Positions 1,230-54,717 of a DNA stretch of 64,000 nucleotides are shown in pieces. Location of the stretch: positions 489,308-553,307 of the forward strand of contig NZ_PQWO01000001.1 of the NCBI RefSeq assembly GCF_003231495.1, written 5' to 3'. The translations under genes and the position numbers were made by a program. Source of the DNA: Acaryochloris thomasi RCC1774. Lineage in GTDB: Bacteria > Cyanobacteriota > Cyanobacteriia > Thermosynechococcales > Thermosynechococcaceae. How positions within the stretch are numbered: the stretch's first letter is position 1; the number at the start of each line of letters is the position of its first letter. The notes under the pieces were generated by a model. The model searched no databases. It had not been told where the DNA came from and was given only the letters and a program-made list of their open reading frames with translations.

Positions 1230-1621
1230 GTCTCTTTTGCTTTGACGGCAGGCCACCGCCATTCAATGAGTTTGACAATGGCATACATGAACAAACAGCC
1301 GATGCCGTTGGCAATCATATCTTCGCCAGAGAAATGCCGACCGGGCACCCAATGTTGCCCAATCTCTAAGATGACAGAATATCCAAATAAAGCCATGAGT
1401 AGAGTTCTGTAGCGACCCGCTTGATGAAATGCCAAATATAGCGCCGCAGATAAGACAGCCCAGCACAGGAAATGCACCAGCTTATCTGGAGGGGAATCGA
1501 ATGCGTCAATCGCTTTGGGCGTTAGAGTTTGGTGAGTTGCGACTGCTAACAGCAGCCCAAAAATAAATTTCAACAGCGTTGACACTGGGCCTGAATTCCT
1601 CTTTGAAGCTTGCGATCGCAA
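1226..1621 (-). CDS. VanZ-family membrane protein
   Basis: 131 aa with several TM segments and an ILEIGQHWVPGRHFSGEDMIANGIG motif resembling the VanZ family. It overlaps the downstream HAD gene by 4 bp, which suggests an operon. Confidence 0.55.
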   Translation of the reverse strand: MRSQASKRNSGPVSTLLKFIFGLLLAVATHQTLTPKAIDAFDSPPDKLVHFLCWAVLSAALYLAFHQAGRYRTLLMALFGYSVILEIGQHWVPGRHFSGEDMIANGIGCLFMYAIVKLIEWRWPAVKAKET

Positions 1622-1825
1622 ATACCATCCATTGAGACCCCTCTTCCTCTACTTTTGTGCCCTTACCGAGATGCGACAAAAGTTAGCCTGAGATGGAATA
1701 CCGCAGAAAAAGCCACTCTGCTACTGATATGGCATGTTCTTCGCGGGAAAGGCTTGATAACATTGGCTTTGTGCTTAACTATCCAGTAAGGCTCCTTCAT
1801 TATCTGTAAAAAGGGAAATTCACTA

Positions 1826-3922: not shown

Positions 3923-3987
3923 CAAGCTAAATCGTCCATCTGCAATGCATTCGGAAGAATACTCTAAACCGATTCAAAACAAGAACA

Positions 3988-32813: not shown

Positions 32814-32852
32814 CTGCATTGGCCCCCCCGGCCCCCAAATTCTGGGGGGAGA
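32814..32852. repeat. GC-homopolymer palindromic repeat, copy 1 (ctgcatt-G/C-ccccccggccccc-aattctgggggga)
   Basis: Shares about 35 of 39 positions with the copy at 34014-34052 in the same orientation. It is internally near-palindromic (CCCCCC...AATTCT...GGGGGG). Confidence 0.7.
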
Positions 32853-32959: not shown

Positions 32960-33718
32960 ATGAGTCAGAGTGCAAACATCTCGCCTATTCATCTTTGGTG
33001 TTTGCACGGTAATTTACAGCAGCCTAGCGTTTGGGAAACGGCTCTGAGAGATCTTTGGCGAGACCCAGCGATCAGGGTTATTCCGGTGGATTTGTGGTCA
33101 ACGACGGCTCAGGATTTTTGGGGTTGGGCAGAGCAGTTCTGTGAACGGGTGGTGGCTGAGGGAGCCAGTCGCAATGTAGTGTTGGGCTACTCTTTGGGTG
33201 GACGGTTGGCCCTCCATGCAGTGCTGCAAAATCCGGGGTTGTGGAAGGGTGCGATCGCAACCAGCACATCCCCTGGTCTCTCTAGTTTTAAGGACCGTCA
33301 GGCCTGTCTTCAGCGCGATCGAATCTGGGGCCAACGCTTTAGAACAGAACCGTGGCAAGCGCTCCTAAATGAGTGGGATAACCTACCCGTTTTTAATGGC
33401 ATTCCCTGCAACATTGAGCGAAAGGAAAGTCAGTTTTCTCGACAGCGGATTGCGCGACTGTTCGATATTTTTTCCCAGGGCCGTCAAGAGGATTTGCTAC
33501 TTCGATTAAAAGCGCTGGAGAACCCGCCAATCTTGTATATTTCTGGGGAGCTTGATCGAAAATACTGCGCGATGGGTCGTCGTTTGGCTGAGGCGTGTCG
33601 TGGGGTGGAGTGGGTTGCGATCGCAAATGCAGGCCATCGAGTCCCGTGGGAGAACACGCCTGTATTTACGCAGGTGGTTGAACAGTGGTTGCGTCAGCTC
33701 CCAGATCAAACAAATTGA
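32960..33718 (+). CDS. Alpha/beta hydrolase, MenH (SHCHC synthase)-like
   Basis: LWCLHGNLQQPSVWE and the nucleophile elbow GYSLGGRLAL. The overall length and pattern match the MenH-type family. Confidence 0.5.
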   Translation: MSQSANISPIHLWCLHGNLQQPSVWETALRDLWRDPAIRVIPVDLWSTTAQDFWGWAEQFCERVVAEGASRNVVLGYSLGGRLALHAVLQNPGLWKGAIATSTSPGLSSFKDRQACLQRDRIWGQRFRTEPWQALLNEWDNLPVFNGIPCNIERKESQFSRQRIARLFDIFSQGRQEDLLLRLKALENPPILYISGELDRKYCAMGRRLAEACRGVEWVAIANAGHRVPWENTPVFTQVVEQWLRQLPDQTN

Positions 33719-34013
33719 GTTGTTTAGAGCGAACCTGGGTCAACACCCAGCTTTCGCAAATGCTCCGCTAATTGTTCTGCCCTTTCGTGTTCTTGGTCTG
33801 CTCGTTGATGCTCTTGGTCTAGCTGTTGGGTTAACTCAACTGGTATCGTAGGGGGAGTGGGTTGCGATCGCACAGAGAAGATGAGCCTGCTTTTGTTTAG
33901 GTGGTCAGCCGTTTGTTTGGTCAGTTTTGAATGCTTATTAATGGAGCACTGTAAATAGACAAGTCTTGTTGGCAAACGCACACTTGCTCGTATCGTGAGA
34001 TTTAGCAACACGA

Positions 34014-34052
34014 CTGCATTCGCCCCCCGGCCCCCCAATTCTGGGGGGAGAA
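34014..34052. repeat. GC-homopolymer palindromic repeat, copy 2
   Basis: ctgcattcgccccccggccccccaattctggggggagaa. It is in direct orientation to copy 1 and inverted relative to copy 3, which lies 145 bp downstream. Confidence 0.7.
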
Positions 34053-34194
34053 CAGCTTTATCTTGTTATCTCTTTGCGTTCAATTGTGGCTGTGAATCAG
34101 CTTATTGTTAACCCATTTGATTTCAATAGTTGTCTACTCAAGTGGTGGTGAGAGCAACTCTCTAAATATTGGTACCACAATGAAAACTCTCAAA

Positions 34195-34235
34195 ACTCTC
34201 CCCCCAGAATTGGGGGACTGGGGGGCAGTGCAAGA
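34195..34235. repeat. GC-homopolymer palindromic repeat, copy 3 (inverted)
   Basis: ctcccccccagaattgggggactggggggcagtgcaag, the reverse-complement orientation of copies 1 and 2. Together with copy 2 it frames a ~220-bp hairpin-capable element. Confidence 0.65.
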
Positions 34236-34744
34236 CGCTAATTGAAAGAAGGCAGCTTGAAATCATAGCGGTATACGCAAAAAGTCTTGTGTATACGTTT
34301 GCCATGCAGGCATTGCAGGGCTAATGATGATTTTCTAGCAACCCAACAGCTTATTTGGGGTGTGTATAGTCACCTGCGACAAAATGAGTACGGTGAAAAC
34401 ACGTATAAATTAGTGTTTGTTTTATTTTGAAAATGGTTGATTTCCCTGATAGCTAACGATTTTGGCTGGGCATACTTGGATACAGAGAGCCAATCATCTG
34501 CAGTATTTAAGGGGTTCAAAAAAGATAGAGCGTTCACAACAAAGGCTTTTATCTCTGGGCTGAAAAATAATTTTATTTTTCTGTCACCCAGTCAACACTC
34601 AATCTGTCTTTCTTGCCACTTGTATTGATGAAGTGACTGTTTTACAGCGGAGCTTGTTTCTAGGCCGCTGCGGTTTACTGCTGCTCTAACTTCAGTTGTG
34701 GTTCTTTCTACAAGGAGAAGCACTCTGACATTTGTGGGATCTGT

Positions 34745-34839
34745 CTCAAGCGGGGGAGTCCCAGTAGTTTTACCTTGACCTCAGCGCGGGTGAAGGAATC
34801 CAATCTGTCTGTTGTTATTTAATTTAGTTGAGACGATTT
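34745..34839 (+). promoter_or_regulatory. Conserved leader / upstream block shared by both FG-GAP–RTX paralogs
   Basis: gggggagtccca...ccttgacctc...ggtgaaggaatccaatctg...ttagttgagacgatttATG. It is conserved at 42965-43069, including a hairpin (ccttcacctc/ggtgaagg) and an identical ttgagacgatt motif ahead of the ATG. Confidence 0.45.
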
Positions 34840-37257
34840 ATGCCCTCTTTTAACGAGCAAACTGGCACCAATAATCCCTTTGACGGCATTGATGCGGGGA
34901 TTGAGGGTGATCCTACTTTGGTAGACGTAGATGGCGACGGCGACTTTGATCTGGTAGCGGGGGATAGCGACGGTGCGCTCAGATACTTTGAAAATACAGG
35001 CGGTGCCACCACCCCTAGCTATAGCGAACAAACCGGCACCAACAATCCTTTTAACGGGATTGATGTGGGAGACGATAGCTCTCCTGCTTTTGCTGATATT
35101 GATGGCGACAGCGACCTTGATCTACTAGTTGGAGGAAATAATGGTGGCGTTCAACTAGAGTATTTTGAGAATATAGGTAGTGCCACTAACCCTAGCTTCA
35201 GCGCACAGACCGGCACCAATAACCCCTTGGGCAGGCTTTCTGTGGGATATGACAACTCACCTACCTTTGCTGATATCGATGGCGATGGCGACTTTGATCT
35301 AGTGGTGGGAGATGATACCAATCAGCTCAGTTACTTTGAGAATACAGGTAGTGCCACCAGCCCAAGTTTCAGCCAGATCACCGGTACTAATAACCCATTT
35401 GAAGGTATTGGCCAGGGAATTAACAGCTCCCCCACATTGGTCGATGTGGATGGAGATGGCGACCTTGACCTAGTGGTGGGCAATGGTAACTATACACTCA
35501 GTTACTTTGAGAATATAGGTAGTGCCACTAACCCTAGCTTCAGCGCACAGACCGGCACCAATAACCCCTTTGACGGGCTTAACTTCGGAAGTGCTTTTGG
35601 CTCCGTTACACCTACTTTTGCCGATGTCGATGGTGATGGCAACCTCGATCTAGTCTCTGGCACAGGGCAATTAAGCTTCTTCGTCAGCAATGAACCAGCG
35701 ATCATTACTGGCGATATTTCAGGTGCAGTTACTGAAGACACTACCACTACAACTGCCACTGGCACACTAAACGCAACCGATGTTGACTCCAGCGCTGACT
35801 TCACTGTGCAAACTGATACTGCTGGTACATACGGCACCTTCTCTATCGATGCAGCTGGAGTCTGGACTTACACGCTCGACAACGCTGATGCTGATACCGA
35901 TGCTCTAGAAGCAGATGAAATGATCACGGATGTCTTCACTGTCGCCACAGCTGATGGCACAACTCAAGAGGTCACCGTCACTGTCACAGGTGCTAATGAT
36001 GCAGCTATCATCGCCGGCACAACAACAGGTGCAGTCACTGAAGATGACGCTATTACGACTGCGATGGGTAGCCTAATGGCCACCGATGTCGATTCCAGCA
36101 CTGACTTCGCAGTGCAAACCGATGCAGCGGGCACCTACGGCACATTCTCCATTGACGCATCCGGCAACTGGACCTACACCCTCGATAACAGTGATGCTGA
36201 TACAGAAGCTTTGGGTTCTAGTGACACTGTTACAGATGTGATCACCGTTGCTACTGCCGATGGCACGACTCAAGATATCACCATCACCATCGATGGCAAT
36301 AGTGATACCGTTCAAATCGGTACTCCTGGCCCCGATCTAATTGTGGGAACCCCCCTCGACGATACTCTAGAAGGCTTAGATGGCAACGATCGCATCCGTG
36401 GCCTTAACGGCAACGACCTCATCTTGGGCGGCAACCACAGTGACACCCTCTTTGGCGACGGCGGCAACGATTCCCTCTTCGGCGGCAACGGCATCGACCG
36501 ACTGTTTGGCGGCAACGGCAACGATTCCCTCAACGGTGGCAACAACAACGACACCCTCTCAGGCCAAGGTGGCGACGATACGCTCTTGGGCGGCAGCGGC
36601 AACGATATTCTCATCGGTGCTGCAGGCAATGACCTCCTGCAAGGCGGACTCGATAACGATCGCCTCGTCGGTGGCAGCAATGACGACAGGCTGTTTGGCC
36701 AAGCAGGTAACGATACTCTGATCGGAGCTAGCGGCCTCGATTCTCTGGTCGGCTCCGCAGGCAATGACCTTCTACAAGGGGGCACTGGCAATGATTCCCT
36801 CAACGGCGGCAACGACAACGATGTGCTCGAAGGTCAAGGTGGCTTCGATATCTTAATCGGTGCCAGCGGCGACGACCTGCTCGTAGGTGGTTCTAACGAT
36901 GACACACTCACAGGCGGCACTGGGTCTGATACATTCCGATTTGACGTTGGCTTCAACAGCCTCGGCCTTGATACGATTACAGACTTCGCTAGCAATGATG
37001 TACTGGAGTTAAGCCAGTCTGTCTTTGGGCTGATGGGTGCCATCGGTGGCGTCATCGATGTGAGTGACTTTGCAAGCGTTAGCTCTTTTGCTGAGGCCGA
37101 AAGCAGTGGCGCAGCGATTGCTTACAACAGTAATGACGGTAGCCTCTATTTCGATGCCAACGGCGCTGCAGCCGGATTTGGCAACGGCGGCGGTCAGTTC
37201 GCTCAGCTAGAGAACGCCTTCGACCTCCAAGCCAACCAGATTGAATTGATTGCCTAA
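34840..37257 (+). CDS. Secreted-type repeat protein: 5 FG-GAP/VCBS-like propeller repeats, 2 VCBS (TIGR01965-like) domains and RTX nonapeptide Ca-binding repeats (T1SS-substrate architecture)
   Basis: No N-terminal signal peptide. There are five ~57-aa repeats (NPFDGI...FADIDGDGDLDLVVG...YFENTGSAT.PS). Two ~100-aa modules follow (GAVTED...DVDSS.DF.VQTD.AGTYGTFSID.AG.WTYTLDN). Then come many GGxGNDxL-type repeats (GGNGNDSLNGGNNNDTLSGQGGDDTLLGGSGND) and an acidic Gly-rich C-terminus ending ...QIELIA. The start is taken at the ATG at 34840; the track used an upstream TTG. Confidence 0.85.
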   Translation: MPSFNEQTGTNNPFDGIDAGIEGDPTLVDVDGDGDFDLVAGDSDGALRYFENTGGATTPSYSEQTGTNNPFNGIDVGDDSSPAFADIDGDSDLDLLVGGNNGGVQLEYFENIGSATNPSFSAQTGTNNPLGRLSVGYDNSPTFADIDGDGDFDLVVGDDTNQLSYFENTGSATSPSFSQITGTNNPFEGIGQGINSSPTLVDVDGDGDLDLVVGNGNYTLSYFENIGSATNPSFSAQTGTNNPFDGLNFGSAFGSVTPTFADVDGDGNLDLVSGTGQLSFFVSNEPAIITGDISGAVTEDTTTTTATGTLNATDVDSSADFTVQTDTAGTYGTFSIDAAGVWTYTLDNADADTDALEADEMITDVFTVATADGTTQEVTVTVTGANDAAIIAGTTTGAVTEDDAITTAMGSLMATDVDSSTDFAVQTDAAGTYGTFSIDASGNWTYTLDNSDADTEALGSSDTVTDVITVATADGTTQDITITIDGNSDTVQIGTPGPDLIVGTPLDDTLEGLDGNDRIRGLNGNDLILGGNHSDTLFGDGGNDSLFGGNGIDRLFGGNGNDSLNGGNNNDTLSGQGGDDTLLGGSGNDILIGAAGNDLLQGGLDNDRLVGGSNDDRLFGQAGNDTLIGASGLDSLVGSAGNDLLQGGTGNDSLNGGNDNDVLEGQGGFDILIGASGDDLLVGGSNDDTLTGGTGSDTFRFDVGFNSLGLDTITDFASNDVLELSQSVFGLMGAIGGVIDVSDFASVSSFAEAESSGAAIAYNSNDGSLYFDANGAAAGFGNGGGQFAQLENAFDLQANQIELIA
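35164..35228. repeat. Intragenic ~65-bp exact DNA repeat (second copy at 35507-35571)
   Basis: tttgagaatataggtagtgccactaaccctagcttcagcgcacagaccggcaccaataacccctt occurs twice inside the FG-GAP repeat region. Confidence 0.7.
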
Positions 37258-37294
37258 ACTACTGGTAACAAGTCAACTGAATAGATAAGCAAAA

Positions 37295-37324
37295 GCCAGC
37301 CGATCATGATCGGCTGGCTTTTTT
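37295..37324 (+). terminator. Rho-independent terminator after the FG-GAP–RTX gene
   Basis: Perfect palindrome gccagccgatca/tgatcggctggc followed by tttttt. Confidence 0.7.
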
Positions 37325-37538
37325 GCCTGACAAGTATCGGCTCATCTGATCCGGTAAAACCAACCGCACGATTGCGATATGGCGTAGATTTATATTTTGA
37401 CTGGGCACACTGAAAGCAAAAGAGTGAGCGCATTTTATAGAAAAGTTTGAGGCTAGCGTTCCCCTCTCATGATCAGGACATGGCTGCTTTCTATAACCTT
37501 TGACCCGCAATGACTTTATTGTTACCCCAGATTGATAC

Positions 37539-40500
37539 ATGACCGCTTCTTTGAATGAGCCACGTTTATCGAGTACTCCTGGCGGTGACGCAGGTGTCGC
37601 CGCGCCAACGTTAGAGGCTACCCATTCTGAAGGGTTCGGCCATTGGCTGCAGCAACAGCAGCTCAGTCTAGCCTTTACGACCTACCAAACGAATCGCTTA
37701 TTTTGTCTGGGCACGACACAGGCAGGGAAAATGGCGCTACATGAACGCTTGTTTGATAAGCCAATGGGCCTGTTCGCCCAGGACAATCGCCTCTACATGA
37801 GTACCCGCTATCAAATATGGCAGCTCGATAATCTGCTAAGACCCGGAGAACTGCGTCAGGGTTGCGATCTCATCTACACCCCAAAACTAGCGCACACAAC
37901 CGGCGACCTCAACGTTCACGACGTGGTTATCGACGCATCCGGCGAACTTCTGTTTGTGAATACCGACTTCAACTGTTTAGCCCGTCTCAGCCCTGACTAT
38001 AGCTTTGTACCGCAATGGCGACCGCCCTTTATCTCGAAATGGGTCGCCGAAGATCGCTGTCACCTCAACGGCCTCGCCCTGCGAGAGGGCAAACCGGCCT
38101 ACATGACCGCCTGTAGCAGCACCAATACAGCCGCCAGTTGGCGTCACCACCGGGTTGACGGCGGCGTCGTGATGGATATCCAAGCCAACGAAGTGATCGC
38201 CACGGGCCTCTCAATGCCCCACTCGCCACGCTGGTATCGCGGCAAGCTCTGGTTGCTCAATTCAGGGACCGGTGAACTCGGTCACATCGACTTCGACAGC
38301 GGTGCCTTTGTCCCGCTCACCTTCTGCCCCGGCTTCGTGCGGGGAATGACCTTTTGCGGCAACGTCGCCGTGATCGGTCTATCAAAATTGAGGTCAAAAT
38401 CTTTCACCGGTCTAGCGCTGGAAAAACGACTAACGGCAGCGGGAGATCGCCCCCACTGTGGCTTGATGGTTGTTGACCTAGAGACCGGCAACGTTTTGCA
38501 TTGGCTGCGTTTAGAGGGAGTCGTTGAAGAGCTTTTTGATGTGGTGGTGCTACCCAACGTCCGCCAGCCGCAATCTCTAGGGTTCCAGTCTGATGAAATT
38601 GAGCGGCTAGTCACCTTCCCAGAGGCTGAAGGGATTGTGGTCACAAAACCCACGGTCAAGCGCCCGAGTTTGGCAGGCAAAGCCCCCGTTGCTGGCGTAC
38701 CCCGCACCGTCTGGGATGGGCAGTCAAGCTCCTCAACGGCTTCAGTCCCGTCGATCGCTGCCGCTTTAGACTCCCTTAAGTTTCAGCACGTTTACCATCT
38801 GACACCAGAAAATCTGGCAGACTACGACGATTTCACGTTTCCGCGTCTACGGCAGCGCTGGTCACAGCAGCCTCAGCGCGGCGAGATGCTCGGCGTATCA
38901 GCGTCGGTAGAGGGCGACATGGTGGCCTTCGGTGTGGCTGAGCTGCTGCCCGATCAGTCGGCTGAGGTGATCTCGCTTTGGGTGACCCCAGAGTACCGGC
39001 AACAAAGGATCGGACAGCGGTTGATGGCAATTCTGGAGCAGAAAGTCTGCCAAGAGGGCTGCACTAAACTGTTAATCGCCTACGAGGCCACTGCCCTTAC
39101 CCAGATAGAGCCTTTATTGAAAAACTTGGGCTGGCAAGCCCTCTCTCAGAACCACACCCAGCATAGATGGCACAAAAATTTCGCACCGCAGCTTGAGAAA
39201 GAGGCACCACACCCCTTTGAGCAGGGCAAAGCCTTTGCTAAGCAAGGAGATCTAGACGCAGCCATCGCTTGCTTTACTGAGGCCCTTCGCCAACGCCCCG
39301 ACCACCTCGCCGCCTATAACCAACTGGGCAATGCCTATCAGCAGTTGGGGCAAACAGAAGATGCGATCGCAACCTATCAAGCCCTCTTAGAACGCAATCC
39401 CAACGTCGCGCAGGCCCACGCCAACCTAGGGGCGATCTGGCAGATTCAGGGGAAAACGGGAGATGCGATCGCATCCTATCAAACCGCCATTGCCCTCAAG
39501 CCCGACTTAACCGTAGCCCATCTCAATCTAGCCAAGCTGCACGCAACAGCAGGCCAGCAAAAAAACGCTGCAGTGCATTATCAAGCGGCCCTTGCAGCCG
39601 ATCCCCAACAAGTAGAAGCCCACTACGGCCTTGCCAAGGTATCGCTGACTCAGGACCATTTAGAGCAGGCAAACGCCTGTTTTCGGCAGGTTTTAAAGCT
39701 CCAGCCGGAACACTCAGCCGCTCTATTAGAGCTAGGCTTTTTGTCTGAGGCCCAAGGGCAACTAGCGGTTGCTCGTGCCTGCTACCAGAAGCTATTTAAT
39801 ACCTGCCTAGAGTGGCAGCATTTAGCCGCTTACCAGCTTAGCTATGTGCGGCGGCAGCTTTGCAACTGGCAGCACGACGATGCGCGTATGACAGAGCTAC
39901 TGCAGCGCCTTGAGACGCACATTGCTCAGACCGACAGTCCTGCCCTCGCCCCCTTGAGCCTGAGCGTTTTCCCCGCATCGCCAGCATTGCATCGGGCCGT
40001 GAACGAACACCACGCAGCGCAGATTCAGCGACGCATGGCCGAGACTAAAGAACGATGTCATTTCCAGCATCCTCAGGGGCCTGTCGATAAACTGCGGATT
40101 GGCTACGTCTCGCCTGATTTCCGCAATCATCCGGTGGGCTGGCTGATGCAAGATTTGTTTCAGTACCACGACCGCGATCGCTTTGAAATCTTTGCCTATA
40201 GCCTCCGCCATGCCGAAGATTCAGTGCAGGCCAACATTGAGGCCGGGTGCGATCATTTTATCGACTGCTCCCAGCTATTGCCGGAAGAGAGTGCTCACCG
40301 CATTCATGCTGATGGCATTCATATTTTGATTGATCTAGCGGGTTACACCACCTATTCTCGACCTGAGATTTTTGCGCTGCGTCCCGCACCAATTCAGTGC
40401 AGCTATTTAGGCTATCCCGATACCACCGGTTCAGAGAGTATCGATTATCTGATCACCGATGAGTGGGTCGTGCCGCCTGCATTGGCAGCTCACTGTACTG

Positions 40501-41198
40501 AGCAGGTGGTCTACCTACCGCATCAGTTTGTGGTATCGCCAACATTCGCAGAGTCTTGTTTGCCAAAGGCCGAGATAGATCAAGAGGTACTAAAACAAGG
40601 GAATTTAAAGCAGACCCGCCAGGACTATGGTTTACCTGCAAAGGGGTTTGTGTTCTGTTGTTTTAATCTCCATCGCAAGATCGAACCGACGGTGTTTTCG
40701 GTGTGGATGAAGATTTTGCAGCAGGTACCAAACTCAGTGCTTTGGCTCTCAGATGGGCCAGACCCGGTCAAGGTGAATCTGCGTCAGGCCGCCCAGGCTC
40801 ATGGGGTTGCGGCAGAGCGATTGATTTTTGCCCCTCGGCTCCCCTTTGACGAATACTTAGCCCGCTATCAATTTGCTGATTTGTTTCTGGATACCTTCTC
40901 CTATGGAGCGGGTTCGACCGCAATCTGCGCGCTCTCTGCAGGAGTACCTTTGTTGACCCATCCAGGCGAGACCAATGCCTCACGGATGGGGGCCAGCATT
41001 TGCGCGGCAGCGGGCTTAGAAGACTTGCTGATTTGCGACAGCATATTGACCTACGAACAAAGGGCTGTGCATCTTGCAACTCACGCAGAAGAGATGGCGA
41101 CCCTACGGCAGAAGTTACGCGGCAATCGCAGCAATTTACCGCTGTTTCAACCCCAGCAATGGATCTCTCACTGGGAAGAAACGCTAGAGAAACTCTGA
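37539..41198 (+). CDS. Multidomain O-GlcNAc-transferase-like (GT41) protein: N-terminal beta-propeller-like domain (DUF4915/TIGR03032-like by recollection), then GNAT acetyltransferase, TPR repeats and a GT41 catalytic domain
   Basis: The GT41 region aligns strikingly with eukaryotic OGT as I recall it. Our LRIGYVSPDFRNHPVGWLMQ matches OGT [20 protein letters not shown]; our VPNSVLWL is identical; our PGETNASRMGAS matches PGETLASRVAAS. TPR repeats run (AAYNQLGNAYQQLGQTEDAIATYQ...) x~6. A GNAT core (Q/RxxGxG/A-like RIGQRLMAILEQ) lies at ~aa 450-520. The N-terminal ~380 aa have repeated strand-rich blades. Confidence 0.85.
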   Translation: MTASLNEPRLSSTPGGDAGVAAPTLEATHSEGFGHWLQQQQLSLAFTTYQTNRLFCLGTTQAGKMALHERLFDKPMGLFAQDNRLYMSTRYQIWQLDNLLRPGELRQGCDLIYTPKLAHTTGDLNVHDVVIDASGELLFVNTDFNCLARLSPDYSFVPQWRPPFISKWVAEDRCHLNGLALREGKPAYMTACSSTNTAASWRHHRVDGGVVMDIQANEVIATGLSMPHSPRWYRGKLWLLNSGTGELGHIDFDSGAFVPLTFCPGFVRGMTFCGNVAVIGLSKLRSKSFTGLALEKRLTAAGDRPHCGLMVVDLETGNVLHWLRLEGVVEELFDVVVLPNVRQPQSLGFQSDEIERLVTFPEAEGIVVTKPTVKRPSLAGKAPVAGVPRTVWDGQSSSSTASVPSIAAALDSLKFQHVYHLTPENLADYDDFTFPRLRQRWSQQPQRGEMLGVSASVEGDMVAFGVAELLPDQSAEVISLWVTPEYRQQRIGQRLMAILEQKVCQEGCTKLLIAYEATALTQIEPLLKNLGWQALSQNHTQHRWHKNFAPQLEKEAPHPFEQGKAFAKQGDLDAAIACFTEALRQRPDHLAAYNQLGNAYQQLGQTEDAIATYQALLERNPNVAQAHANLGAIWQIQGKTGDAIASYQTAIALKPDLTVAHLNLAKLHATAGQQKNAAVHYQAALAADPQQVEAHYGLAKVSLTQDHLEQANACFRQVLKLQPEHSAALLELGFLSEAQGQLAVARACYQKLFNTCLEWQHLAAYQLSYVRRQLCNWQHDDARMTELLQRLETHIAQTDSPALAPLSLSVFPASPALHRAVNEHHAAQIQRRMAETKERCHFQHPQGPVDKLRIGYVSPDFRNHPVGWLMQDLFQYHDRDRFEIFAYSLRHAEDSVQANIEAGCDHFIDCSQLLPEESAHRIHADGIHILIDLAGYTTYSRPEIFALRPAPIQCSYLGYPDTTGSESIDYLITDEWVVPPALAAHCTEQVVYLPHQFVVSPTFAESCLPKAEIDQEVLKQGNLKQTRQDYGLPAKGFVFCCFNLHRKIEPTVFSVWMKILQQVPNSVLWLSDGPDPVKVNLRQAAQAHGVAAERLIFAPRLPFDEYLARYQFADLFLDTFSYGAGSTAICALSAGVPLLTHPGETNASRMGASICAAAGLEDLLICDSILTYEQRAVHLATHAEEMATLRQKLRGNRSNLPLFQPQQWISHWEETLEKL

Positions 41199-42058
41199 GA
41201 TCTGTTCTAAGACAGGAAAGTCCCCATCGTGCTGCCTTCATCTTTTTGGGCCGCTTCACGGAGAATGCGGCCCATCTTAATTGAGGGGAATTGAAGAATG
41301 GAGACGGTTGCGATCGCATCGATCAACCGCTGTCTCTCTCATCAAGAACAGGCCTACTCTCACATAGATTATCCCGCAATGTCTTCATTTGCTTAGACCG
41401 CACAGCTCCAGATCAGTAAGCTATCAAGCCTGCGATATGACATCAAAAGAAATCAGCCGTCCGTCAGACACGATCAGGCGACAAGAAACTTAAAACGATA
41501 GCCATTGCGTTTTTGAAGATTGCACCACGAGGCTGAAACGCTTACCCCAAGCCACAAAAAGCAAAACAGAAGCTGTACCAGCAGAAAACAGCTTGGAGAA
41601 ATCCTGTATGTTTTTAAGTCTTATTTTATTGAGCTATAAACACTCAGTTATTATCATCCTAAATACTAGGTATAACGCTGTAACCCTTGCTCTACAAAAG
41701 TGATAGTTAACGCTCGAATATTTCTGCTCCAGAAATTCAGGTTTTTTTGTATGCTTTGATGTTCTACTTTGTTGGTTTCAAAAACAACTTTCGCATGATG
41801 TTGGCATACCTCAGAATCACATCTAGGCAATAAAAACGTGTCTAAAAACAATAGAAGCATGATGAGATGGAGTTCTACAAAAAATATTTCCAGAGAAATT
41901 TTGTATATTTTCGCGTTTGTTTTTGCTTACCGCTACGTGTTGAATTCCATTGTTATACAAAGTTTTTAGCTGGGTACACTCAATTTCAGACAGCTTAATA
42001 ATTTAAATTTCAAAATTCTATATAGACTTCTTCTTCTGCCAGTTGCTCGGATTTATTT

Positions 42059-42980
42059 ATGATTGCGTCTTTGAACCCGCAACGTTTACTGAACGTTGTG
42101 AAATTCTCCGCTGACGATAAAAATTTCGAACCCCCAGCTATAGCCTCCCAGCTAAAAGTGACTCATTCTGAAGGGTTACCCAATGGGTTACAGCATCAAG
42201 ACCTGAATGTAGCTTTTACCACTCATCAAACCAACCGTCTTTTCTGCGTGAGTCTCGTCCAGAAGGACGTATAAACAATGCGTGAACGCTTGGTTGACAA
42301 GCCGATGGGTCAATTTGCCCAGAATAATTGCCTCTGCATGAGTACTCGCCATCAGAAGTGGCAGCTCGATCATTTGCTAAGGGCACGAGGGTTGCGTCAG
42401 AGTTGCGATCGCATCTATATCCCTGAACTGGCTTACACGACCGATAACCTCAAAATCCGTGAAGTGGTTCCATCTGAGTCTGTCGAACAACAGATGTTGC
42501 GGCAGGTTCCGGGAGCAGCGCTATTGCTCTTTGATAGGACAAACTCAGTCAAGGTCAACGTGCGCCAAGCCGCACGCGCCCAGGAGCTTGATCCTGACCA
42601 ACTGATCTTTGCTCCTCAGCTACCCTTTAACGAATATTTAACCCGCTATCGCTGTTCGGATCTGCTCCTAGACGCCTGCACCTACAGGGTCGGTTCGACG
42701 GCGATTGCACTCTCAGCCTGGTTGCCGTTGCTCACCCATCCTGATGCATCACAAACGGAAGCCAGTATCTGCGCAGCGGCGGGTTTCAAAGATTTGCTCA
42801 TTTGTGACAGTGCTGTTGCTTATGAGCAAAAGACAGTCCATCCTGCCACTCATGCAGGTGGGATGGCTGCCATATAGCGGAGATTATGCGAAAACTGCAG
42901 CAGGTTTACCGCTATTCCAACCCCAGTCGTGGATTTTCTACTTGGAAGAGTCTCCTGGGAAGCTCTGGGATCTGTCTTAG
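42059..42980 (+). pseudogene. Decayed, internally deleted copy of the GT41 multidomain gene (N-terminal ~130 codons and C-terminal ~170 codons remain, in frameshifted pieces)
   Basis: MIASLNPQRL...VTHSEGLPNGLQHQDLNVAFTTHQTNRLFC matches MTASLNEPRL...ATHSEGFGHWLQQQQLSLAFTTYQTNRLFC. ...LIFAPQLPFNEYLTRYRCSDLLLDACTYRVGSTAI...ICAAAGFKDLLICDS... matches the GT41 C-terminus. Three short ORFs lie in different frames. Confidence 0.75.
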
Positions 42981-43069
42981 GACGGGGGAGTCCCATCGCT
43001 TTTCCTTCACCTCAACATAGGTGAAGGAATTCAATCTGTTCTTCATTAAATTATTAGTTGAGACGATTA
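42965..43069 (+). promoter_or_regulatory. Conserved leader / upstream block, copy 2 (see 34745-34839)
   Basis: gacgggggagtcccatcgcttttccttcacctcaacataggtgaaggaattcaatctg...ttagttgagacgattaATG. Confidence 0.45.
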
Positions 43070-44863
43070 ATGCCCACCTTTAACGAACAAACCGGCACCA
43101 ATAACCCCTTTGATGGGATTAATGTTGGAAGTGACAGCCACCCTACCTTTGCCGATATTGATGACGATGGGGATCTTGATCTACTGATCGGGGACTTTTC
43201 CGATGGCATTCTAAACTTCTTTGAGAATACGGGTAGTGCCTCTAGCCCCAGCTATGTTGAACAAACCGGCACCAATAACCCTTTCGACGGTATTTCTAGA
43301 AGTGAAAGCACCCCCACCTTTGCCGACATTGATGGCGATGATGATCTTGATCTGGTTATTGGACAATCCTTCGGTGGCCTGAGTTTCTTTGAAAATACAG
43401 GCAGTGCCACTAGCCCTAGCTACATCGAACAAACTGGCACTGATAATCCTTTCCCTAGCGTTGGTTCAAACGATAGCAACTCTCCCTTCTTTGCCGATCT
43501 TGATGGCGACGGTGATCTCGATCTAGTCACGGGAGATGGCAATGGCACGATAAACTACGTTGAGAACACGGGCAGTGCCACTAGCCCCAGCTACATCGAG
43601 CAAACCGGCACTAACAATCCCTTCGATGGGTTTAATGTAGGCTTTGAAAGCCAACCGGTCTTGGCTGATGTTGATGGTGATGGCGACCTTGATCTAGTTG
43701 TTGGGGCTGGCAGTGGCACAATCAATTTCTTTGAGAACACAGGCAGTACAACCAGTCCCAACTACATCGAGCAAACCGGCACTAGCAATCCCTTCGATGG
43801 GTTTAATGTGGGGGGTGAAAGCCAACCTGTCTTGGCTGATGTTGATGGTGATGGCGACCTCGATCTAGTTGTTGGAAATGGCCCTGGCACAATCAATTTC
43901 TTTGAGAATGCCGGGAGTCCCAATGGCGCGACCCCTGGTCCAGATCGCCTTTCAGGAACCCCTGATGACGACACTTTAGAAGGCTTAGATGGTCGAGATC
44001 GTCTCAATGGCCGAAATGGCAATGATCGCATCGTAGGCGGCAATGGTAGTGACACCCTCCTGGGTGAAGGTGGTAACGATACCCTCTTCGGCGGCAGCGG
44101 TATCGACCTCCTCTTTGGCGGTAACGGCAATGACTTTCTTAATGGGGGCAACAATAACGACACGCTGCAGGGCCAAGCGGGAGACGATACTCTTCAAGGC
44201 GGCAGCGGCAACGATATATTGATTGGCTCAACAGGAAGCGACCTGCTTCAAGGGGGACTCGACAACGACTTCCTGAGTGGGGGGAGCGACAACGACACGC
44301 TGGTCGGCCAAGCCGGAGATGATACTCTCCTAGGCGGAAACGGACTCGATCGTCTGATCGGCACTGCAGGTGATGACCAACTAAGGGGTGGCTTCGGCAA
44401 CGATACACTTAACGGCGGCAACGACAACGATGTGCTCGAAGGTCAAGCTGGTTCTGATCGCTTGATTGGCGGCGGCGGTGACGACATTCTCGTCGGTGGC
44501 TCCAGCGATGACACACTTGTAGGTGGAGTCGGGTCTGATACGTTCCGATTTGGCGGTGGCTTCAACAGCCTCGGCACCGATACGATCATAGACCTTACCA
44601 GCGATGATGTAATGGAGTTGAGTCTGTCTGTCTTTGGTCTGACAGGTGCCATCGGTGACATCATCGATATGAGCGAGTTCGCCAGCGTCAGCTCTCTGGC
44701 TGACGCCGAAAGCAGTGGTGCATCCATCGCTTACAACAGCAATGATGGTAGCCTCTACTTCAATGCCAATGGCGCTGCAGCAGGCTTCGGTACTGGCGGT
44801 CAGTTCGCTCAGCTCAACAATACCTTTGACCTCCAAGCCAGTCAGATTGAGTTGATTGCCTAA
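43070..44863 (+). CDS. Paralogous FG-GAP/VCBS-like propeller + RTX repeat protein (lacks the two VCBS modules of the first copy)
   Basis: Five FG-GAP-like repeats then RTX nonapeptides (GGNGSDTLLGEGGNDTLFGGSGID...). The C-terminal ~110 aa are near-identical to the first paralog, ending QIELIA. There is no signal peptide. Confidence 0.85.
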   Translation: MPTFNEQTGTNNPFDGINVGSDSHPTFADIDDDGDLDLLIGDFSDGILNFFENTGSASSPSYVEQTGTNNPFDGISRSESTPTFADIDGDDDLDLVIGQSFGGLSFFENTGSATSPSYIEQTGTDNPFPSVGSNDSNSPFFADLDGDGDLDLVTGDGNGTINYVENTGSATSPSYIEQTGTNNPFDGFNVGFESQPVLADVDGDGDLDLVVGAGSGTINFFENTGSTTSPNYIEQTGTSNPFDGFNVGGESQPVLADVDGDGDLDLVVGNGPGTINFFENAGSPNGATPGPDRLSGTPDDDTLEGLDGRDRLNGRNGNDRIVGGNGSDTLLGEGGNDTLFGGSGIDLLFGGNGNDFLNGGNNNDTLQGQAGDDTLQGGSGNDILIGSTGSDLLQGGLDNDFLSGGSDNDTLVGQAGDDTLLGGNGLDRLIGTAGDDQLRGGFGNDTLNGGNDNDVLEGQAGSDRLIGGGGDDILVGGSSDDTLVGGVGSDTFRFGGGFNSLGTDTIIDLTSDDVMELSLSVFGLTGAIGDIIDMSEFASVSSLADAESSGASIAYNSNDGSLYFNANGAAAGFGTGGQFAQLNNTFDLQASQIELIA

Positions 44864-44900
44864 ACCATTTGCAATTGAGTCAATTGAATAAATAAAACTA

Positions 44901-44936
44901 GGCCAACAGATTAACGATGAATCTGTTGGCCTTTTT
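44901..44936 (+). terminator. Rho-independent terminator after the RTX paralog 2
   Basis: ggccaacagatt-aacgatg-aatctgttggcc followed by ttttt. Confidence 0.7.
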
Positions 44937-50750: not shown

Positions 50751-51332
50751 CCCAACAAAATCGCTCAAGACTTGAACCATTGAGTCTATAAATAAAATCT
50801 AAATATACTTGCCGTTCCAGGACTAATAGCGATACTGTATCCTTAGCTATCTGTTCGATAGACGTATAAGGTGCTGGAACATGCTTTCAGTCCTGAATGT
50901 CATTGAGCAATAGGATTACCTTAAAGAAATTAAGCTTTAAGGGTTGAGGGTGTTATCTGAGACATTATCAGCATCAATGACTGGCATACAGTTGGGGGTA
51001 TGGCAATTAGTCATTGTCTTCAAATAGGGGTGTTACCAAGTTATTTAAGCTAATCCAACGTCCAAGTGGATAAGGCAGTTGAGCAGTCTCTCAATCTGCT
51101 TTTTACACAGATGGTTCAAGTTTTATAAGCATAGCTACACAGCAGGCAGTCTTATTCCTGCTGTCTTGACCAGGAGAACTTATTGCTGTTCTCCTCGGTT
51201 CCTTTATTCTTGTGCACTGACTTAAGGTTGATGCGCGTAGGCTCTGCTGTCCACAGGCTGAAAAGTATGGGGGTGAAGAGCCTACGCGGCAGAATTTCAT
51301 GCTGTGAGTTTTTTCTATCGAGGTCTAAGTTA

Positions 51333-53768
51333 ATGACTGACATATTCAGTTCTGATTTATTTGACTCTGCTCCCAAGAGCATCATGGGGCAGAGCAACTT
51401 AAGCGCAGAAACAGTTGAGGTAGAAGAAGCCTCTTCAGGTCTAGAGTTTCGCTCCATCAACGGTTCTGACAATAATGATACAAATACAGGCGTCACCGGC
51501 GAGCAACTTTTGCGCCTCTTCACGAATGCTTTTGAAGACGGTATCAGTACACCACGTGGGGGAGACTTTCCCAATCCCTTCGATCCCTCAAGTCCGCCTT
51601 CATCCCTTCCCAATCCTCGTACTATCAGTAATACAATCGCTGCTCAATCAGAGTCAGTCTCTAATTTTCTGAATGCCAGTGATTGGATATGGCAGTGGGC
51701 ACAATTCATCGATCATGACCTCGATTTAAACGAGTCAACCGCAGACAACCCTGGTGAATTCACACCCATTGTGGTTCCAAATGGCGATCCCACATTCTCT
51801 GATGGAACATTTCTGCCCTTTTTGAGAGTAGGGGCTTCAGAAGGAACCGGCATCAATAATCCCCGCCAGGCCGACAATCTAATTACCAGCTTTATTGATG
51901 CTTCCAGTGTGTATGGCTCTGATGAAGAGCGGGGCGACTTTTTACGTTCCTTTGCAAATGGGCAGCTCAAATTCTCAGAAACCAACAATGGCGAAGTCCT
52001 CTTGCCAGAGAATCCTGATGAAGGAACGGGAGAAAGGCAAGAAAATGCCACAGGTGGAACCCTCGGTGACTTCCAGTATGTTGCCGGAGATATTCGAGCG
52101 AATGAGCAAATTGGCTTAACAGCAGTTCACACCTTGTTCGTGCGTGAACATAATCGTCTTGCGGCAGATCTTCTTGACCGCCTAGAAGCAGGTGAAGCAG
52201 CATTAGTCGAAAAGTTTGAGCAGTTCACAGAGACCAGCGACGAAACAGATAGCGATGCTCTGCAGGATGAGTTTATTTACCAAGCAGCCCGCAAGGTTGT
52301 AGGGGCCAAGATCCAGCAAATTACCTATGATGAATTCCTACCTCTGTTGATTGGTGAAGGAACAACAGCAGAGTACGACGGCTATAAATCTGATGTGCTG
52401 GCATCCATCAGTACAGAGTTTGCTAATGCAGCCTACCGTGTGGGTCACACCTTACTATCGGATCAAATACAGCGCCTGAGTACAAATGGCCTCAGCGAGA
52501 TTGCGTTAGGCGATGCTTTCTTTATCCCCGAACAAATCAAAGACGAGGGCGTTGATTCAACCCTACGCGGTTTAATCCTCCAAGCTTCACAAGAGGCAGA
52601 TAATCTTGTCATTGATGGGGTGCGGAACTTCCTATTCGAGGCAGGGACCGGAGGGCTTGATCTAGCCTCTGTAAATATTGCAAGAGGGCGTGATACCGGC
52701 TTACCTGGCTATGTTGAAGTCTATGAAGCCCTTTTCGGCACCAGCATCGATAGCTTTGATGATCTCGGATCTTCGGGCCTAGGGCTCATAGCAGATGATG
52801 TCGTTGCTCTCTTTGAAGAAGCTTATGAAACAGTCGACCAAATTGACCTCTGGATTGCAGGCATCTCTGAGCAGGCGGATGATCATGGTGGTCTTCTTGG
52901 CCCAACCTTTAGCGCTATCATTGCTGAGCAGTTTGCTCGAACGCGTGATAGCGATCGATTCTTCTATCTCAATGAGCTAGAAGACATCCAGTTATTAGAT
53001 CCTGATTTCGCCAATACCAGTCTTTCTGAGGTACTGCGTGGCAACACTGAAGAGGGCTATCTCATTCAAGACAATGCCTTTGACGTTCCCTATGAAAATT
53101 CAGTCGTCGGGAATGAATCGAATAATATTTTGTTAGGAACTAACGTTGCTGATTTAATCGATGGCAAAGAGGGACGCGATTTTATCATTGGTCGTCGGGG
53201 TGACGACATTCTCTTAGGCGATGCCGGTAATGACGTGCTCATGGGCGGTCAAGGAAATGACACCGTTCTAGGCGGACTTGGACAAGATCGTATCCTCGGT
53301 AGCCTCGGTAACGATGTGCTTCTGGGGGGGGATGATAAGGACATCATCAGTGGTGGCTCCGGGAACGACACTGTTTCAGGAGGTAACGGTAATGATCGGC
53401 TATTGGGCATTCGAGGGAATGACTTGATTCTAGGTAATGCTGGCAACGACTTACTTGCAGGTGGCGGGGGGGCTGATTCCCTGGAAGGTGGAGTTGGTAG
53501 CGACACTCTTCGGGGTGGAGCAGCATCCGACACCTTCATATTCAGTGATGATATCCTCAATGATGGCGTATCTGATACAGACACAATCTGGGGTTTCCAG
53601 CGCTTTGATAGCTTTGATTTTACCGAGTATAGTGGCTCCATTGACTTTAATCGAGTAAGCAGACGACTGCTAGAGATTGAACTCAATGGTGGTGAAGATA
53701 CCATCAATATATTTGGCAGTCGCGCTGGATTGAATGCAGCACAGACGCAACTTTCAGAGCGAGCCTAG
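51333..53768 (+). CDS. Animal-heme-peroxidase-family (peroxidase-cyclooxygenase superfamily) enzyme fused to C-terminal RTX Ca-binding repeats ('peroxicin'-type), paralog 1
   Basis: Distal His region WQWAQFIDHDLDL and proximal region RANEQIGLTAVHTLFVREHNRLA. The C-terminus has GDDILLGDAGNDVLMGGQGNDTVLGG... repeats and ends ...LLEIELNGGEDTINIFG. There is no signal peptide. Start taken at the ATG at 51333. Confidence 0.85.
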   Translation: MTDIFSSDLFDSAPKSIMGQSNLSAETVEVEEASSGLEFRSINGSDNNDTNTGVTGEQLLRLFTNAFEDGISTPRGGDFPNPFDPSSPPSSLPNPRTISNTIAAQSESVSNFLNASDWIWQWAQFIDHDLDLNESTADNPGEFTPIVVPNGDPTFSDGTFLPFLRVGASEGTGINNPRQADNLITSFIDASSVYGSDEERGDFLRSFANGQLKFSETNNGEVLLPENPDEGTGERQENATGGTLGDFQYVAGDIRANEQIGLTAVHTLFVREHNRLAADLLDRLEAGEAALVEKFEQFTETSDETDSDALQDEFIYQAARKVVGAKIQQITYDEFLPLLIGEGTTAEYDGYKSDVLASISTEFANAAYRVGHTLLSDQIQRLSTNGLSEIALGDAFFIPEQIKDEGVDSTLRGLILQASQEADNLVIDGVRNFLFEAGTGGLDLASVNIARGRDTGLPGYVEVYEALFGTSIDSFDDLGSSGLGLIADDVVALFEEAYETVDQIDLWIAGISEQADDHGGLLGPTFSAIIAEQFARTRDSDRFFYLNELEDIQLLDPDFANTSLSEVLRGNTEEGYLIQDNAFDVPYENSVVGNESNNILLGTNVADLIDGKEGRDFIIGRRGDDILLGDAGNDVLMGGQGNDTVLGGLGQDRILGSLGNDVLLGGDDKDIISGGSGNDTVSGGNGNDRLLGIRGNDLILGNAGNDLLAGGGGADSLEGGVGSDTLRGGAASDTFIFSDDILNDGVSDTDTIWGFQRFDSFDFTEYSGSIDFNRVSRRLLEIELNGGEDTINIFGSRAGLNAAQTQLSERA

Positions 53769-54717
53769 ACTAAAGAGCTTCAGCAAGCCCTTTAATCTAT
53801 CTGAAGCTCGTCTTTTAAGACTACTCTTTTTAAGAAGCCTCAAAGCCTATCTCTTTGAGGCTTCTCGCATATGTCAATCATGCAAAACCAATTCTATACA
53901 TCACAGAAACAGAGAGTTGAAGCGCAGAATAGATTAAACAAGTGCCTAATCGCTAGTTTTGAAGTTCATGTTTACTCAATTTTGCCTTTAATTATTGATA
54001 GAGATTAACCTCAGCTTGACTTGAGCTGTTTGAAGTTCCATTTACACTAAACTCTGGGACTATCTACAGAAGGTATTCAGACGCTGGGATTTCACCAAGA
54101 CTGACAATATAGGATTGCCTAAGTAAGGCTCCCTCCTTGCTCTCTCAGTAAAGTTCAGGATGAAGCCAAGCCTGAACAAGCAGTCAGTCACAACAAAATC
54201 TAAATTTACTTGCCGTTCCAGGGTTGATGAGGTTAAGCTAATTTTAGATTCAAGCTAAAGTACAAAACAGTATTGGAACTCTTTTCCATTTTTTGCAGTC
54301 TTTAGGACTACTGCTGCTTTGAATTCTAAGGGTGTTATCTGACAGACCATTCATATCCATGGTGGTTTATCAATTGGGGATATGGCTACTAGCCATTTGT
54401 TTTTCCAGTGTTATTTCAAAGCTGTTGAAGCTAGCCTTCAGGCACAGCATCTGAGATTTACGGGGGTTATCTCAGCTTGCTTCTGAAAGCAAAGTTTAAA
54501 TTTTTACAAACGTAACTTAAGCAGAATACTAACTTTTGGTTAGTGATTTGCTGATGCGGGAAGAACCTATCGGTGTTCTTTTCATGTCTTTACTTTTGCG
54601 AGTTGATGCCAAGTAAGTGCATCTAAATCTTGCTGTCTGAGTTTTGAAAACTCTGGACGGAGAGTTTGACTCGTTTATTCCGTGTTGTGAGTTCTTTATC
54701 TTTTGAGGTTTAAATTA

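Follow-up and report, generated by a model that had tools for sequence, protein, structure and literature searches.

Why should a dead glycosyltransferase gene keep the very end that adjoins its neighbour? The question is raised by a 64,000-nucleotide (nt) stretch of the genome of Acaryochloris thomasi RCC1774 (contig NZ_PQWO01000001.1, 489,308-553,307; here the window, whose positions serve as coordinates), in which three segments derived from GT41-family glycosyltransferase genes and two genes for RTX-repeat proteins lie on the + strand. A previous reading made from the sequence alone held that a unit of GT41 gene, hairpin leader and RTX gene appears twice through segmental duplication, the second GT41 copy being an internally deleted pseudogene. 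The region appears to consist of old tandem paralogues of a two-gene unit, composed of a GT41 enzyme gene and a gene for a secreted FG-GAP/RTX protein. It is quite probable that these units are old, that redundant enzymes decayed, and that the RTX genes were kept together with a leader that would act as RNA. The overall phenomenon is ordinary birth-and-death of an enzyme-substrate gene pair; what is new is modest and lies in the leader RNA with its possible coupling helix, in relics that keep the segment adjoining the leader, and in a link between DUF4915-GT41 enzymes and FG-GAP proteins.

Layout of the locus and its relatives

The window reads, in order, psi0, leader A, RTX_A and a terminator; the intact GT41_A, a leader-like stub of ~45 nt and a 0.8-kb spacer; and psiGT41_B, leader B, RTX_B, from which the VCBS modules have been lost, and a further terminator. 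Within each leader two predicted hairpins, P1 and P2, are followed by a short box directly before the RTX start codon. Lengths of proteins are given in amino acids (aa).

34605-34734, + strand: psi0, a remnant of ~130 nt of a GT41 3' end, placed by local alignment against shuffles
34735-34839, + strand: leader A, with P1 at 34735-34763, P2 at 34771-34798 and box AGTTGAGACGATT at 34826-34838
34840-37257, + strand: RTX_A, 805 aa, PZD74996.1, from Pfam, NCBIfam and exact look-up
37291-37322, + strand: intrinsic terminator 3' of RTX_A, a 14-16 bp stem followed by a T-run
37539-41198, + strand: GT41_A, 1219 aa, the sole intact enzyme gene, from Pfam, NCBIfam and structure-homology matches
41199-41245, + strand: leader-like stub directly 3' of the GT41_A stop codon, from a weak alignment
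41246-42058, no strand: AT-rich spacer (GC 0.43) without a recognisable coding remnant
42059-42469, + strand: psiGT41_B N-terminal fragment, codons ~1-131, tblastn E 3e-32
42492-42980, + strand: psiGT41_B C-terminal fragment, codons ~1058-1219, tblastn E 5e-40, with the original stop codon at 42978-42980
42966-43069, + strand: leader B, with P1 at 42966-42995, P2 at 43002-43029 and the box at 43056-43068
43070-44863, + strand: RTX_B, 597 aa, PZD75027.1, from blastn, Pfam, NCBIfam and exact look-up
44900-44932, + strand: intrinsic terminator 3' of RTX_B, a 13-bp stem followed by a T-run
32960-33718, + strand: alpha/beta-hydrolase gene, followed by ~0.9 kb of non-coding DNA before psi0 and RTX_A

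The stretches 34605-37257 and 42492-44863 each run from a GT41 3' end through a leader into an RTX gene; they are collinear and in the same orientation, with non-coding sequence included, as in a tandem segmental duplication. The earlier claim of a unit present twice is retained in that the units are paralogous, but the order it gave for the first copy is not, as RTX_A lies upstream of GT41_A and it is psi0 that precedes leader A.

Two contigs from related uncultured cyanobacteria, each with a GT41 gene 77% identical, serve for comparison: L001 (CALFCG010000390, from a metagenome-assembled genome) and L002 (JGI metagenome contig Ga0654435_0011839). In relatives the canonical unit consists of a GT41 gene, a structured leader of ~70-105 nt and a gene for an FG-GAP/VCBS/RTX protein, and L002 holds it intact: GT41 occupies 488-4246, the leader is 68 nt long, and two VCBS modules are kept in the RTX gene. 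At a more distant locus, L003 (GT41 57% identical), the GT41 gene is followed by one for an FG-GAP/cadherin protein, and no leader can be aligned. A genome scan with GT41_A returned 37 loci, the single close relative being the same contig as L001, and a protein search with the FG-GAP half of RTX_A gave relatives at up to 60% identity in many phyla, none with the leader.

The GT41 relic at 42059-42980

A tblastn search with GT41_A matched this segment through amino acids 1-136 (E 3e-32) and 1046-1219 (E 5e-40), so that the homology to the termini of the GT41 gene, and with it the assignment as a GT41 pseudogene, is upheld. The relic, psiGT41_B, retains codons ~1-131 and ~1058-1219 around an internal deletion of ~2.8 kb, or about 926 codons, with breakpoints at ~42469 (codon ~131) and ~42492 (codon ~1058) and 22 unassignable nucleotides between them. 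The survival of both termini had been noted before, together with frames said to be shifted; the two fragments in fact share one reading frame, and the one frameshift, a +1 insertion near 42903, alters the last 22 codons only. Two in-frame stop codons interrupt the frame, TAA at 42272-42274 and TAG at 42875-42877. The deleted part held most of the β-propeller together with GNAT, the TPRs and the N-terminal catalytic lobe.

Three short open reading frames (ORFs) occupy the segment, which is publicly annotated as the hypothetical proteins C1752_00502 and C1752_00503, each of them a singleton cluster among about 15 billion proteins. The 199-aa ORF joins ~65 residues of a β-propeller blade to the last third of a GT-B fold. 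Differences at codon positions 1 and 2 of psiGT41_B are ~2 times those between intact orthologues (chi-square p=0.019), while the overall ratio of nonsynonymous to synonymous substitution (dN/dS) is 0.16-0.21, or 0.16-0.18 against GT41_A, as compared to 0.08-0.15 for pairs of intact orthologues. Homology, a broken frame and relaxed constraint are thus all found here, as in a pseudogene, and 42059-42980 is best regarded as the relic of a dead GT41 gene because the propeller, GNAT, TPR and N-terminal catalytic lobe are lost and the frame is broken by stops and a frameshift. From the low overall dN/dS, inactivation probably came late. The two annotated proteins would then be an annotation error, being pieces of one dead glycosyltransferase gene.

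The intact enzyme

GT41_A is 100% identical to an annotated protein of A. thomasi RCC1774, and its domain order in Pfam and NCBIfam is DUF4915/TIGR03032, GNAT, TPR and an OGT-like GT41 catalytic domain. The catalytic part is, by its matches, clearly OGT-like: PF13844 (Glyco_transf_41) scores 321.5 bits against a cut-off of 25, TPR families match residues 555-770 on the N-terminal side of the catalytic domain, and the solved structures recovered include human OGT (7yeh_B, E 1.7e-147), XcOGT (E 1e-70) and SPINDLY (E 1e-68). The NGT model NF049992 gives 34 bits against a cut-off of 1000. At the N-terminus TIGR03032 matches at full length with 469 bits (cut-off 251.5) and PF16261 with 446 bits; the predicted fold is a generic 6-bladed β-propeller (mean predicted local confidence, pLDDT, 87.7). 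DUF4915 is a large family, and no mention of either name, TIGR03032 or DUF4915, was found in the literature.

Age and descent of the copies

The relic is 53-56% identical in amino acid sequence to GT41_A and is no closer to it than to the L001 and L002 genes; over the same segments GT41_A is 76-83% identical to the GT41 proteins of L001 and L002. In a neighbour-joining tree on the 293 retained codons, the relic and L002 GT41 were joined in 93% of bootstraps, the relic and GT41_A in 1.6%, GT41_A and L001 GT41 in 59%, and all four GT41 genes formed a clade in 98%. A variable N-terminal stretch, MIASLNPQRLLNVVKFSADDKNFE in the relic and MIAFLNKQRLSNIAEFSNDSENAK in L002, also matches L002 and not GT41_A. 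These data indicate that the GT41 paralogues split before the A. thomasi lineage parted from the organisms of L001 and L002, and that psiGT41_B is the counterpart of the gene still intact in L002; the simplest reading would be that it was functional through most of its history and inactivated late. The earlier description of the second GT41 as a degraded copy of the neighbouring intact gene is contradicted by this grouping and by the 53-56% identity, and a recent segmental duplication does not agree with synonymous divergence (dS) of about 1-2, which is saturated. Birth-and-death evolution, as proposed at the same time, is seen in the different decay states of the locus in L001 and L002.

The RTX paralogues

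RTX_B is an intact paralogue of RTX_A, as had been stated, with 78% blastn identity over 951 nt (E 2e-170) and several further matches in the N-terminal FG-GAP part. In Pfam and NCBIfam RTX_A shows FG-GAP repeats, two TIGR01965 VCBS domains and RTX nonapeptide repeats; RTX_B shows FG-GAP and RTX repeats and no VCBS. TIGR01965 matches two stretches of RTX_A (168 bits in total) and none of RTX_B, confirming that both modules are absent there, and this absence is a derived loss because the L002 RTX protein keeps two. The GGxGxDxUx nonapeptide family PF00353 gives 148 bits for RTX_A and 227 bits for RTX_B. The RTX family hemolysin model NF033943, with a cut-off of 1000, gives 131 bits for RTX_A and 127 bits for RTX_B, the repeat region alone matching; the public names 'Leukotoxin' and 'Hemolysin, chromosomal' of the two RTX genes are unjustified, as they are based on RTX repeats alone and the scores fall far below RTX-toxin cut-offs.

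The dN/dS check proposed earlier for this pair gave 0.14-0.16 at a saturated dS of about 1.0-2.0, and both genes are accordingly taken to be old and under purifying selection. RTX_B and the L002 RTX gene group weakly (71% of four-point bootstraps). The FG-GAP half of RTX_B is closer to that of L002 than to that of RTX_A; the RTX-repeat and C-terminal halves (36300-37257 and 43955-44863) are 77% identical in amino acids between A and B versus 70-72% to L002, and gene conversion may have occurred in this half. Right after the conserved start, over the first 150 nt of RTX_A and RTX_B, identity drops to 52-62%.

A second duplicated RTX-type pair is present elsewhere in the window, at 51183-53768 and 54703-57045, with animal-haem-peroxidase domains fused to RTX repeats.

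The leader, a conserved and probably RNA-level element

Leaders A and B, ~105 nt each, align over 34735-34842 and 42966-43072. The 13-nt box AGTTGAGACGATT stands in identical form at 34826-34838 and 43056-43068, before both ATGs, in agreement with the identical start context reported earlier, and has no other exact match in the window. From position -105 to -1 identity among A, B and L002 is 71-86%, comparable to that of the first 50 nt of the RTX genes, versus 53-70% in the GT41 relic adjoining upstream of RTX_A; of the synonymous sites, 55-70% differ. Constraint thus acts on the leader, since it exceeds the adjoining relic in identity at a distance where synonymous sites are saturated, and the suggestion that non-coding elements here are under constraint is sustained. 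Leader A is 81% identical to the L002 leader and 72% to leader B; the L002 leader is 78-81% identical to A and B.

The local hairpin P1 is predicted to form from UGGGA…UCCCA, or GGAA/UUCC in L002. P2 is predicted in all four leaders. In leader B it is a perfect 11-bp stem (43002-43029), and this leader folds with a z-score of -3.5 relative to shuffles; in L002 P2 is kept through one C-G to U-A change and one U·G pair, and in L001 it has 13 bp with G·U pairs. As such pairs work only in + strand RNA, P2 would act in that form. The conserved hairpin leader of the sequence-only reading is thus recovered, but its 9-bp stem is not: the stem is of 11 bp, perfect in B and with 9 of 11 positions paired in A. 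P2 is followed by AAUCCAAUCUGU or AAUUCAAUCUGU, with no U-run, and a terminator scan left it unreported while detecting the T-run terminators after both RTX genes. It is therefore not a canonical intrinsic terminator, one of the two roles that had been envisaged for it, as the U-tract is missing.

RNAalifold proposed a 12-bp long-range helix in which GGAUCUGUCUCA, at the leader 5' end and on or beside the GT41 stop codon, pairs with the box UUGAGACGAUU before the AUG; this helix would compete with P1. On a MAFFT alignment that had not been fitted to it, 93% of the cells of the consensus structure were paired, versus 39-59% with the partners slid. Both partners have changed in three base pairs, and 14 of 500 shuffles attained this number. 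The duplex energies of -9.8 to -13.6 kcal/mol were matched by 0.1-2.8% of shuffles, and structures containing the helix are 0-4 kcal/mol above the minimum free energy. If formed, the long-range helix would explain why the start context of the RTX genes is invariant.

The leader also contains a direct repeat, ATCTGTCT, at 34739-34746 and 34803-34810 and again at 42970-42977 and 43034-43040. Both copies can pair with the box, the distal one much more strongly (-9.8 to -13.6 versus -3.1 to -6.4 kcal/mol). A local helix P3 between the proximal AAUCUGU and the box was given up for the long-range one, as it is weak, at -3 to -6 kcal/mol, and not consistent from leader to leader. Neither leader matched Rfam 15 at E values up to 1. 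A covariance model built from the four leaders scored leader A at 110.7 bits and leader B at 112.3 bits. The metagenome pattern AATCTGTN{10,40}TGAGACGATT proved too permissive and gave chance matches, at least 120 loci in all; among the 120 listed, none had similarity to leader, GT41 or RTX. At 7024-7184 of L001 a leader with its hairpin kept and with AGTTGAGACAAACC as its box precedes a different gene, starting MPNDNFADRIILSGNNVTT; the leader can therefore be attached to another downstream gene.

psi0, the stub and the spacers

The segment psi0 lies directly 5' of leader A and resembles the 3' ends of psiGT41_B (Smith-Waterman score 30, z=17) and of L002 GT41 (score 34, z=19), with none of 500 dinucleotide shuffles as good in either comparison; against the GT41_A 3' end z is 5.4. 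A three-way alignment of the junction agrees, and the remainder of this gene copy has been lost. A GT41 N-terminal remnant was sought in 33719-34604 and none was found; a candidate remnant of a GT41 5' untranslated region (UTR) at 34083-34121 was rejected (z=2.2, 11 of 200 shuffles as good), lying within an inverted repeat. The latter belongs to an element of ~205 bp between the hydrolase gene and psi0 that resembles a miniature inverted-repeat transposable element, with 30-nt repeats at 34022-34051 and 34197-34226 that are 93% complementary and 145 nt apart; its core CCCCCAGAATTGGGGG recurs with one mismatch at 32833-32848.

Whether GT41_A once headed a unit of its own is best judged from L001. 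In order, this contig has a hydrolase gene, then a terminator with a 5' UTR, both homologous to 37258-37538, and an intact GT41 gene whose 3' end is fused to an RTX C-terminus remnant (aa 717-805, E 1e-6), which shows that a gene of the GT41_A type was formerly followed by an RTX gene. After a further ~1 kb of spacer follows a GT41 relic, reduced to the first ~13 codons (z=5.3) and the last ~107 codons (E 1e-19), then the leader and the different gene mentioned above. This layout parallels GT41_A, spacer, psiGT41_B and leader in the window. The alignment of 37258-37538 with the region upstream of L001 GT41 (1404-1660 of that contig) has z=43; the block comprises the RTX_A terminator and the GT41_A 5' UTR, and in L001 the terminator hairpin is kept with a different stem sequence and no RTX gene upstream of it. 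The L001 spacer cannot be aligned with that of the window, nor can the spacer 5' of psiGT41_B be aligned with the region 5' of GT41_A or of L001 GT41.

Behind GT41_A itself, the stub at 41199-41245 resembles the first ~45 nt of the leader, after which similarity stops. The leader covariance model did not detect the stub. At 41303-41312, ~104 nt 3' of the GT41_A stop codon, GGAGACGGTT resembles the leader box TTGAGACGATT; it sits at roughly the expected distance, and the similarity between stop codon and GGAGACGGTT is not significant. A 64-aa antisense ORF in the spacer at 41246-42058 has no Pfam match.

A model for decay of the enzymes and retention of the leader

Under the favoured account of old tandem units, the enzyme copies would have become redundant after duplication, leaving GT41_A alone to serve both RTX paralogues in trans, while the RTX substrate genes would have been retained and then diverged. 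Deletions in the dead enzyme genes would have spared their last part because RTX expression depends on the leader and perhaps on signals upstream. The leader would work as + strand RNA with its conserved P2 hairpin, and the invariant box 5' of the RTX AUG would pair with GGAUCUGUCUCA in the GT41 stop region. In an intact unit, ribosomes finishing GT41 would open this long-range helix and free the RTX start site; the pairing thus suggests translational coupling of RTX to GT41.

Several observations weigh against parts of this account. Both leaders in the window follow untranslated relics, so a purely inhibitory helix would silence both RTX genes, and yet both are under purifying selection. In leader A P2 (34771-34798) has two mismatches, and this leader folds no more stably than its shuffled versions (z=-0.5). 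A search of 20 sources with the leader covariance model brought up no additional copies, and covariation support is thin because the four leaders come from three organisms only. The stub 3' of GT41_A is weak, its alignment to leader B having a z of 3.1 and being equalled in 5 of 500 shuffles, and a relaxed tblastn search revealed no RTX remnant in the spacer at 41246-42058, and no GT41 remnant either; a reading with three units leans on the L001 parallel for these two reasons. Estimates of timing are rough as dS is saturated. Among the larger ORFs scanned in the 64-kb window there are no ABC transporter, membrane-fusion or TolC-type secretion genes, and the type I secretion genes for RTX_A and RTX_B may lie elsewhere in the genome. 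Similar FG-GAP proteins are also common in genomes and phyla in which no DUF4915 link was seen, and the modification of RTX proteins by GT41 is a proposal from gene neighbourhood.

Alternative explanations

A recent duplication of GT41_A and RTX_A within the genome, with psiGT41_B as the degraded copy of its neighbour, would account for two copies of each gene type on one strand in a span of 10 kb and for their strong blastn and tblastn similarity. It is very unlikely, since the order is mismatched (RTX_A-GT41_A against psiGT41_B-RTX_B), a third relic, psi0, stands before RTX_A, synonymous sites are saturated, and psiGT41_B groups with L002 (93%) and not with GT41_A (1.6%), as does its variable N-terminal stretch. 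It is also unlikely, if less so, that there were ancestrally only two units, psi0-RTX_A and psiGT41_B-RTX_B, with GT41_A and a short stretch 3' of it inserted or retained separately and never having had an RTX partner of its own at this position. The empty spacer at 41246-42058, the faint leader likeness of the stub (z=3.1), missed by the covariance model, and the closer resemblance of psi0 to B-type 3' ends than to that of GT41_A all speak for two units; the L001 positional orthologue of GT41_A speaks against them, having the conserved upstream terminator and 5' UTR (z=43) and an RTX C-terminus remnant directly behind it. That the segments 42059-42274 and 42278-42877 encode real small proteins, as GenBank and RefSeq annotate them and as the overall dN/dS below 0.25 against intact genes might suggest, is barely credible for a 199-aa chimera without GNAT, TPR or N-terminal catalytic lobe, broken by in-frame stops and a frameshift, with doubled substitutions at codon positions 1 and 2 and singleton clusters only.

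Two further alternatives concern the leader. P2 could be a transcription terminator or attenuator that uncouples GT41 and RTX transcription, in place of a role in translation or in RNA stability: it is a stable and conserved 11-bp hairpin 20-40 nt 3' of the GT41 stop codon, and cyanobacteria depend on intrinsic terminators. This is quite unlikely given the absent U-run and a scan that missed P2 yet found canonical terminators behind both RTX genes; moreover the intergenic space of L002, just 68 nt, could not accommodate an additional promoter behind a terminator. Recent gene conversion between the RTX loci could also have made the leaders alike without constraint, as the 77% amino acid identity of the A and B RTX-repeat halves, against 70-72% to L002, may be taken to imply. 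However, leader A is no less similar to the leader of L002 (81%) than to leader B (72%), the RTX genes are only 52-62% identical over their first 150 nt, base-pair-preserving changes are present in the leaders, and a sharp block of near-identity private to A and B was not observed, which makes such conversion highly improbable. The account in which old units lost redundant enzymes and kept a constrained leader is retained.

A possible enzyme-substrate module

Of 41 fetched loci, 9 have an FG-GAP gene close to the DUF4915 gene and on its strand; among the 11 loci with a propeller at least 59% identical, the number is 8. This linkage supports a functional connection between DUF4915-GT41 and FG-GAP proteins, which would most simply be that of enzyme and substrate; no literature linking GT41 with FG-GAP neighbours was found. 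Outside the Acaryochloris clade the linkage is seen at L008 and L009 (Marichromatium), L014 (Anaerolineae), L161 (Cyanobium) and L162 (Dapis). In Cyanobium and Dapis the FG-GAP gene precedes the enzyme gene; the Cyanobium partner includes a Hint domain and ends in a stop codon that overlaps the enzyme gene start. It may be proposed, tentatively and with more doubt than confidence, that a conserved enzyme-substrate module exists in cyanobacteria, Chromatiales and Anaerolineae, with cytoplasmic glycosylation (perhaps acetylation) before export and, in the Acaryochloris-related clade, leader-coupled translation.

The locus offers a clean example of a duplicated enzyme-substrate pair in which enzyme copies decay while substrate copies and their cis-acting leader persist. 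Two hypotheses follow, namely that the OGT-like enzyme modifies the adjoining FG-GAP/RTX proteins and that the box preceding the RTX start forms half of a regulatory helix. If true, a candidate substrate would be a useful foothold for the DUF4915 family, which lacks a literature, although current understanding would not be overturned.

Apart from these genes, a NACHT/STAND NTPase gene at 8054-10453 lies in a stretch of 35-38% GC, as opposed to about 50% elsewhere, and this stretch may be a foreign island.

Comparison with known systems

In the HMW1C/HMW1 loci of Haemophilus influenzae a GT41-family glycosyltransferase gene adjoins the gene of the secreted adhesin that it modifies, and hmw1/hmw2 are duplicated. 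The A. thomasi locus is similar in that a GT41 enzyme gene stands beside a same-strand gene for a large, secreted, repeat-rich surface protein, and in that the unit is present in multiple copies per genome. Unlike HMW1C, the A. thomasi enzyme is of the OGT/SPINDLY type with TPRs and carries a DUF4915 β-propeller and GNAT; its partner has RTX repeats and is presumably secreted by a type I system, whereas HMW1 is a two-partner-secretion adhesin. Glycosylation of the partner in A. thomasi is putative.

Among cyanobacterial GT41 enzymes, Ogt of Synechococcus elongatus is required for glycosylation of the pilin PilA (bioRxiv 10.1101/2021.07.06.449578; PMC9306852). As far as that abstract describes it, Ogt resembles the present enzyme as a cyanobacterial GT41/OGT homologue, with a surface-protein target in S. 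elongatus. Unlike for the A. thomasi unit, the abstract makes no link to an FG-GAP or RTX neighbour.

For the leader, the nearest parallels are found in translational coupling through long-range mRNA pairing, as in coat-replicase of phage MS2 and in rpmI-rplT of Escherichia coli. As in these systems, the end of an upstream cistron would pair with the start of a downstream cistron, and upstream translation would open the pairing; in A. thomasi, by contrast, the upstream cistrons are dead, so that coupling cannot work there now, and the proposed pairing is drawn from four sequences only.

In its evolution the locus is like the birth-and-death of other bacterial tandem paralogues with unitary pseudogenes, with old duplicates, loss driven by redundancy, and varied decay through deletion, stops and frameshift. 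Set against ordinary birth-and-death, it stands out only in that the part adjoining the downstream leader survives in every relic.

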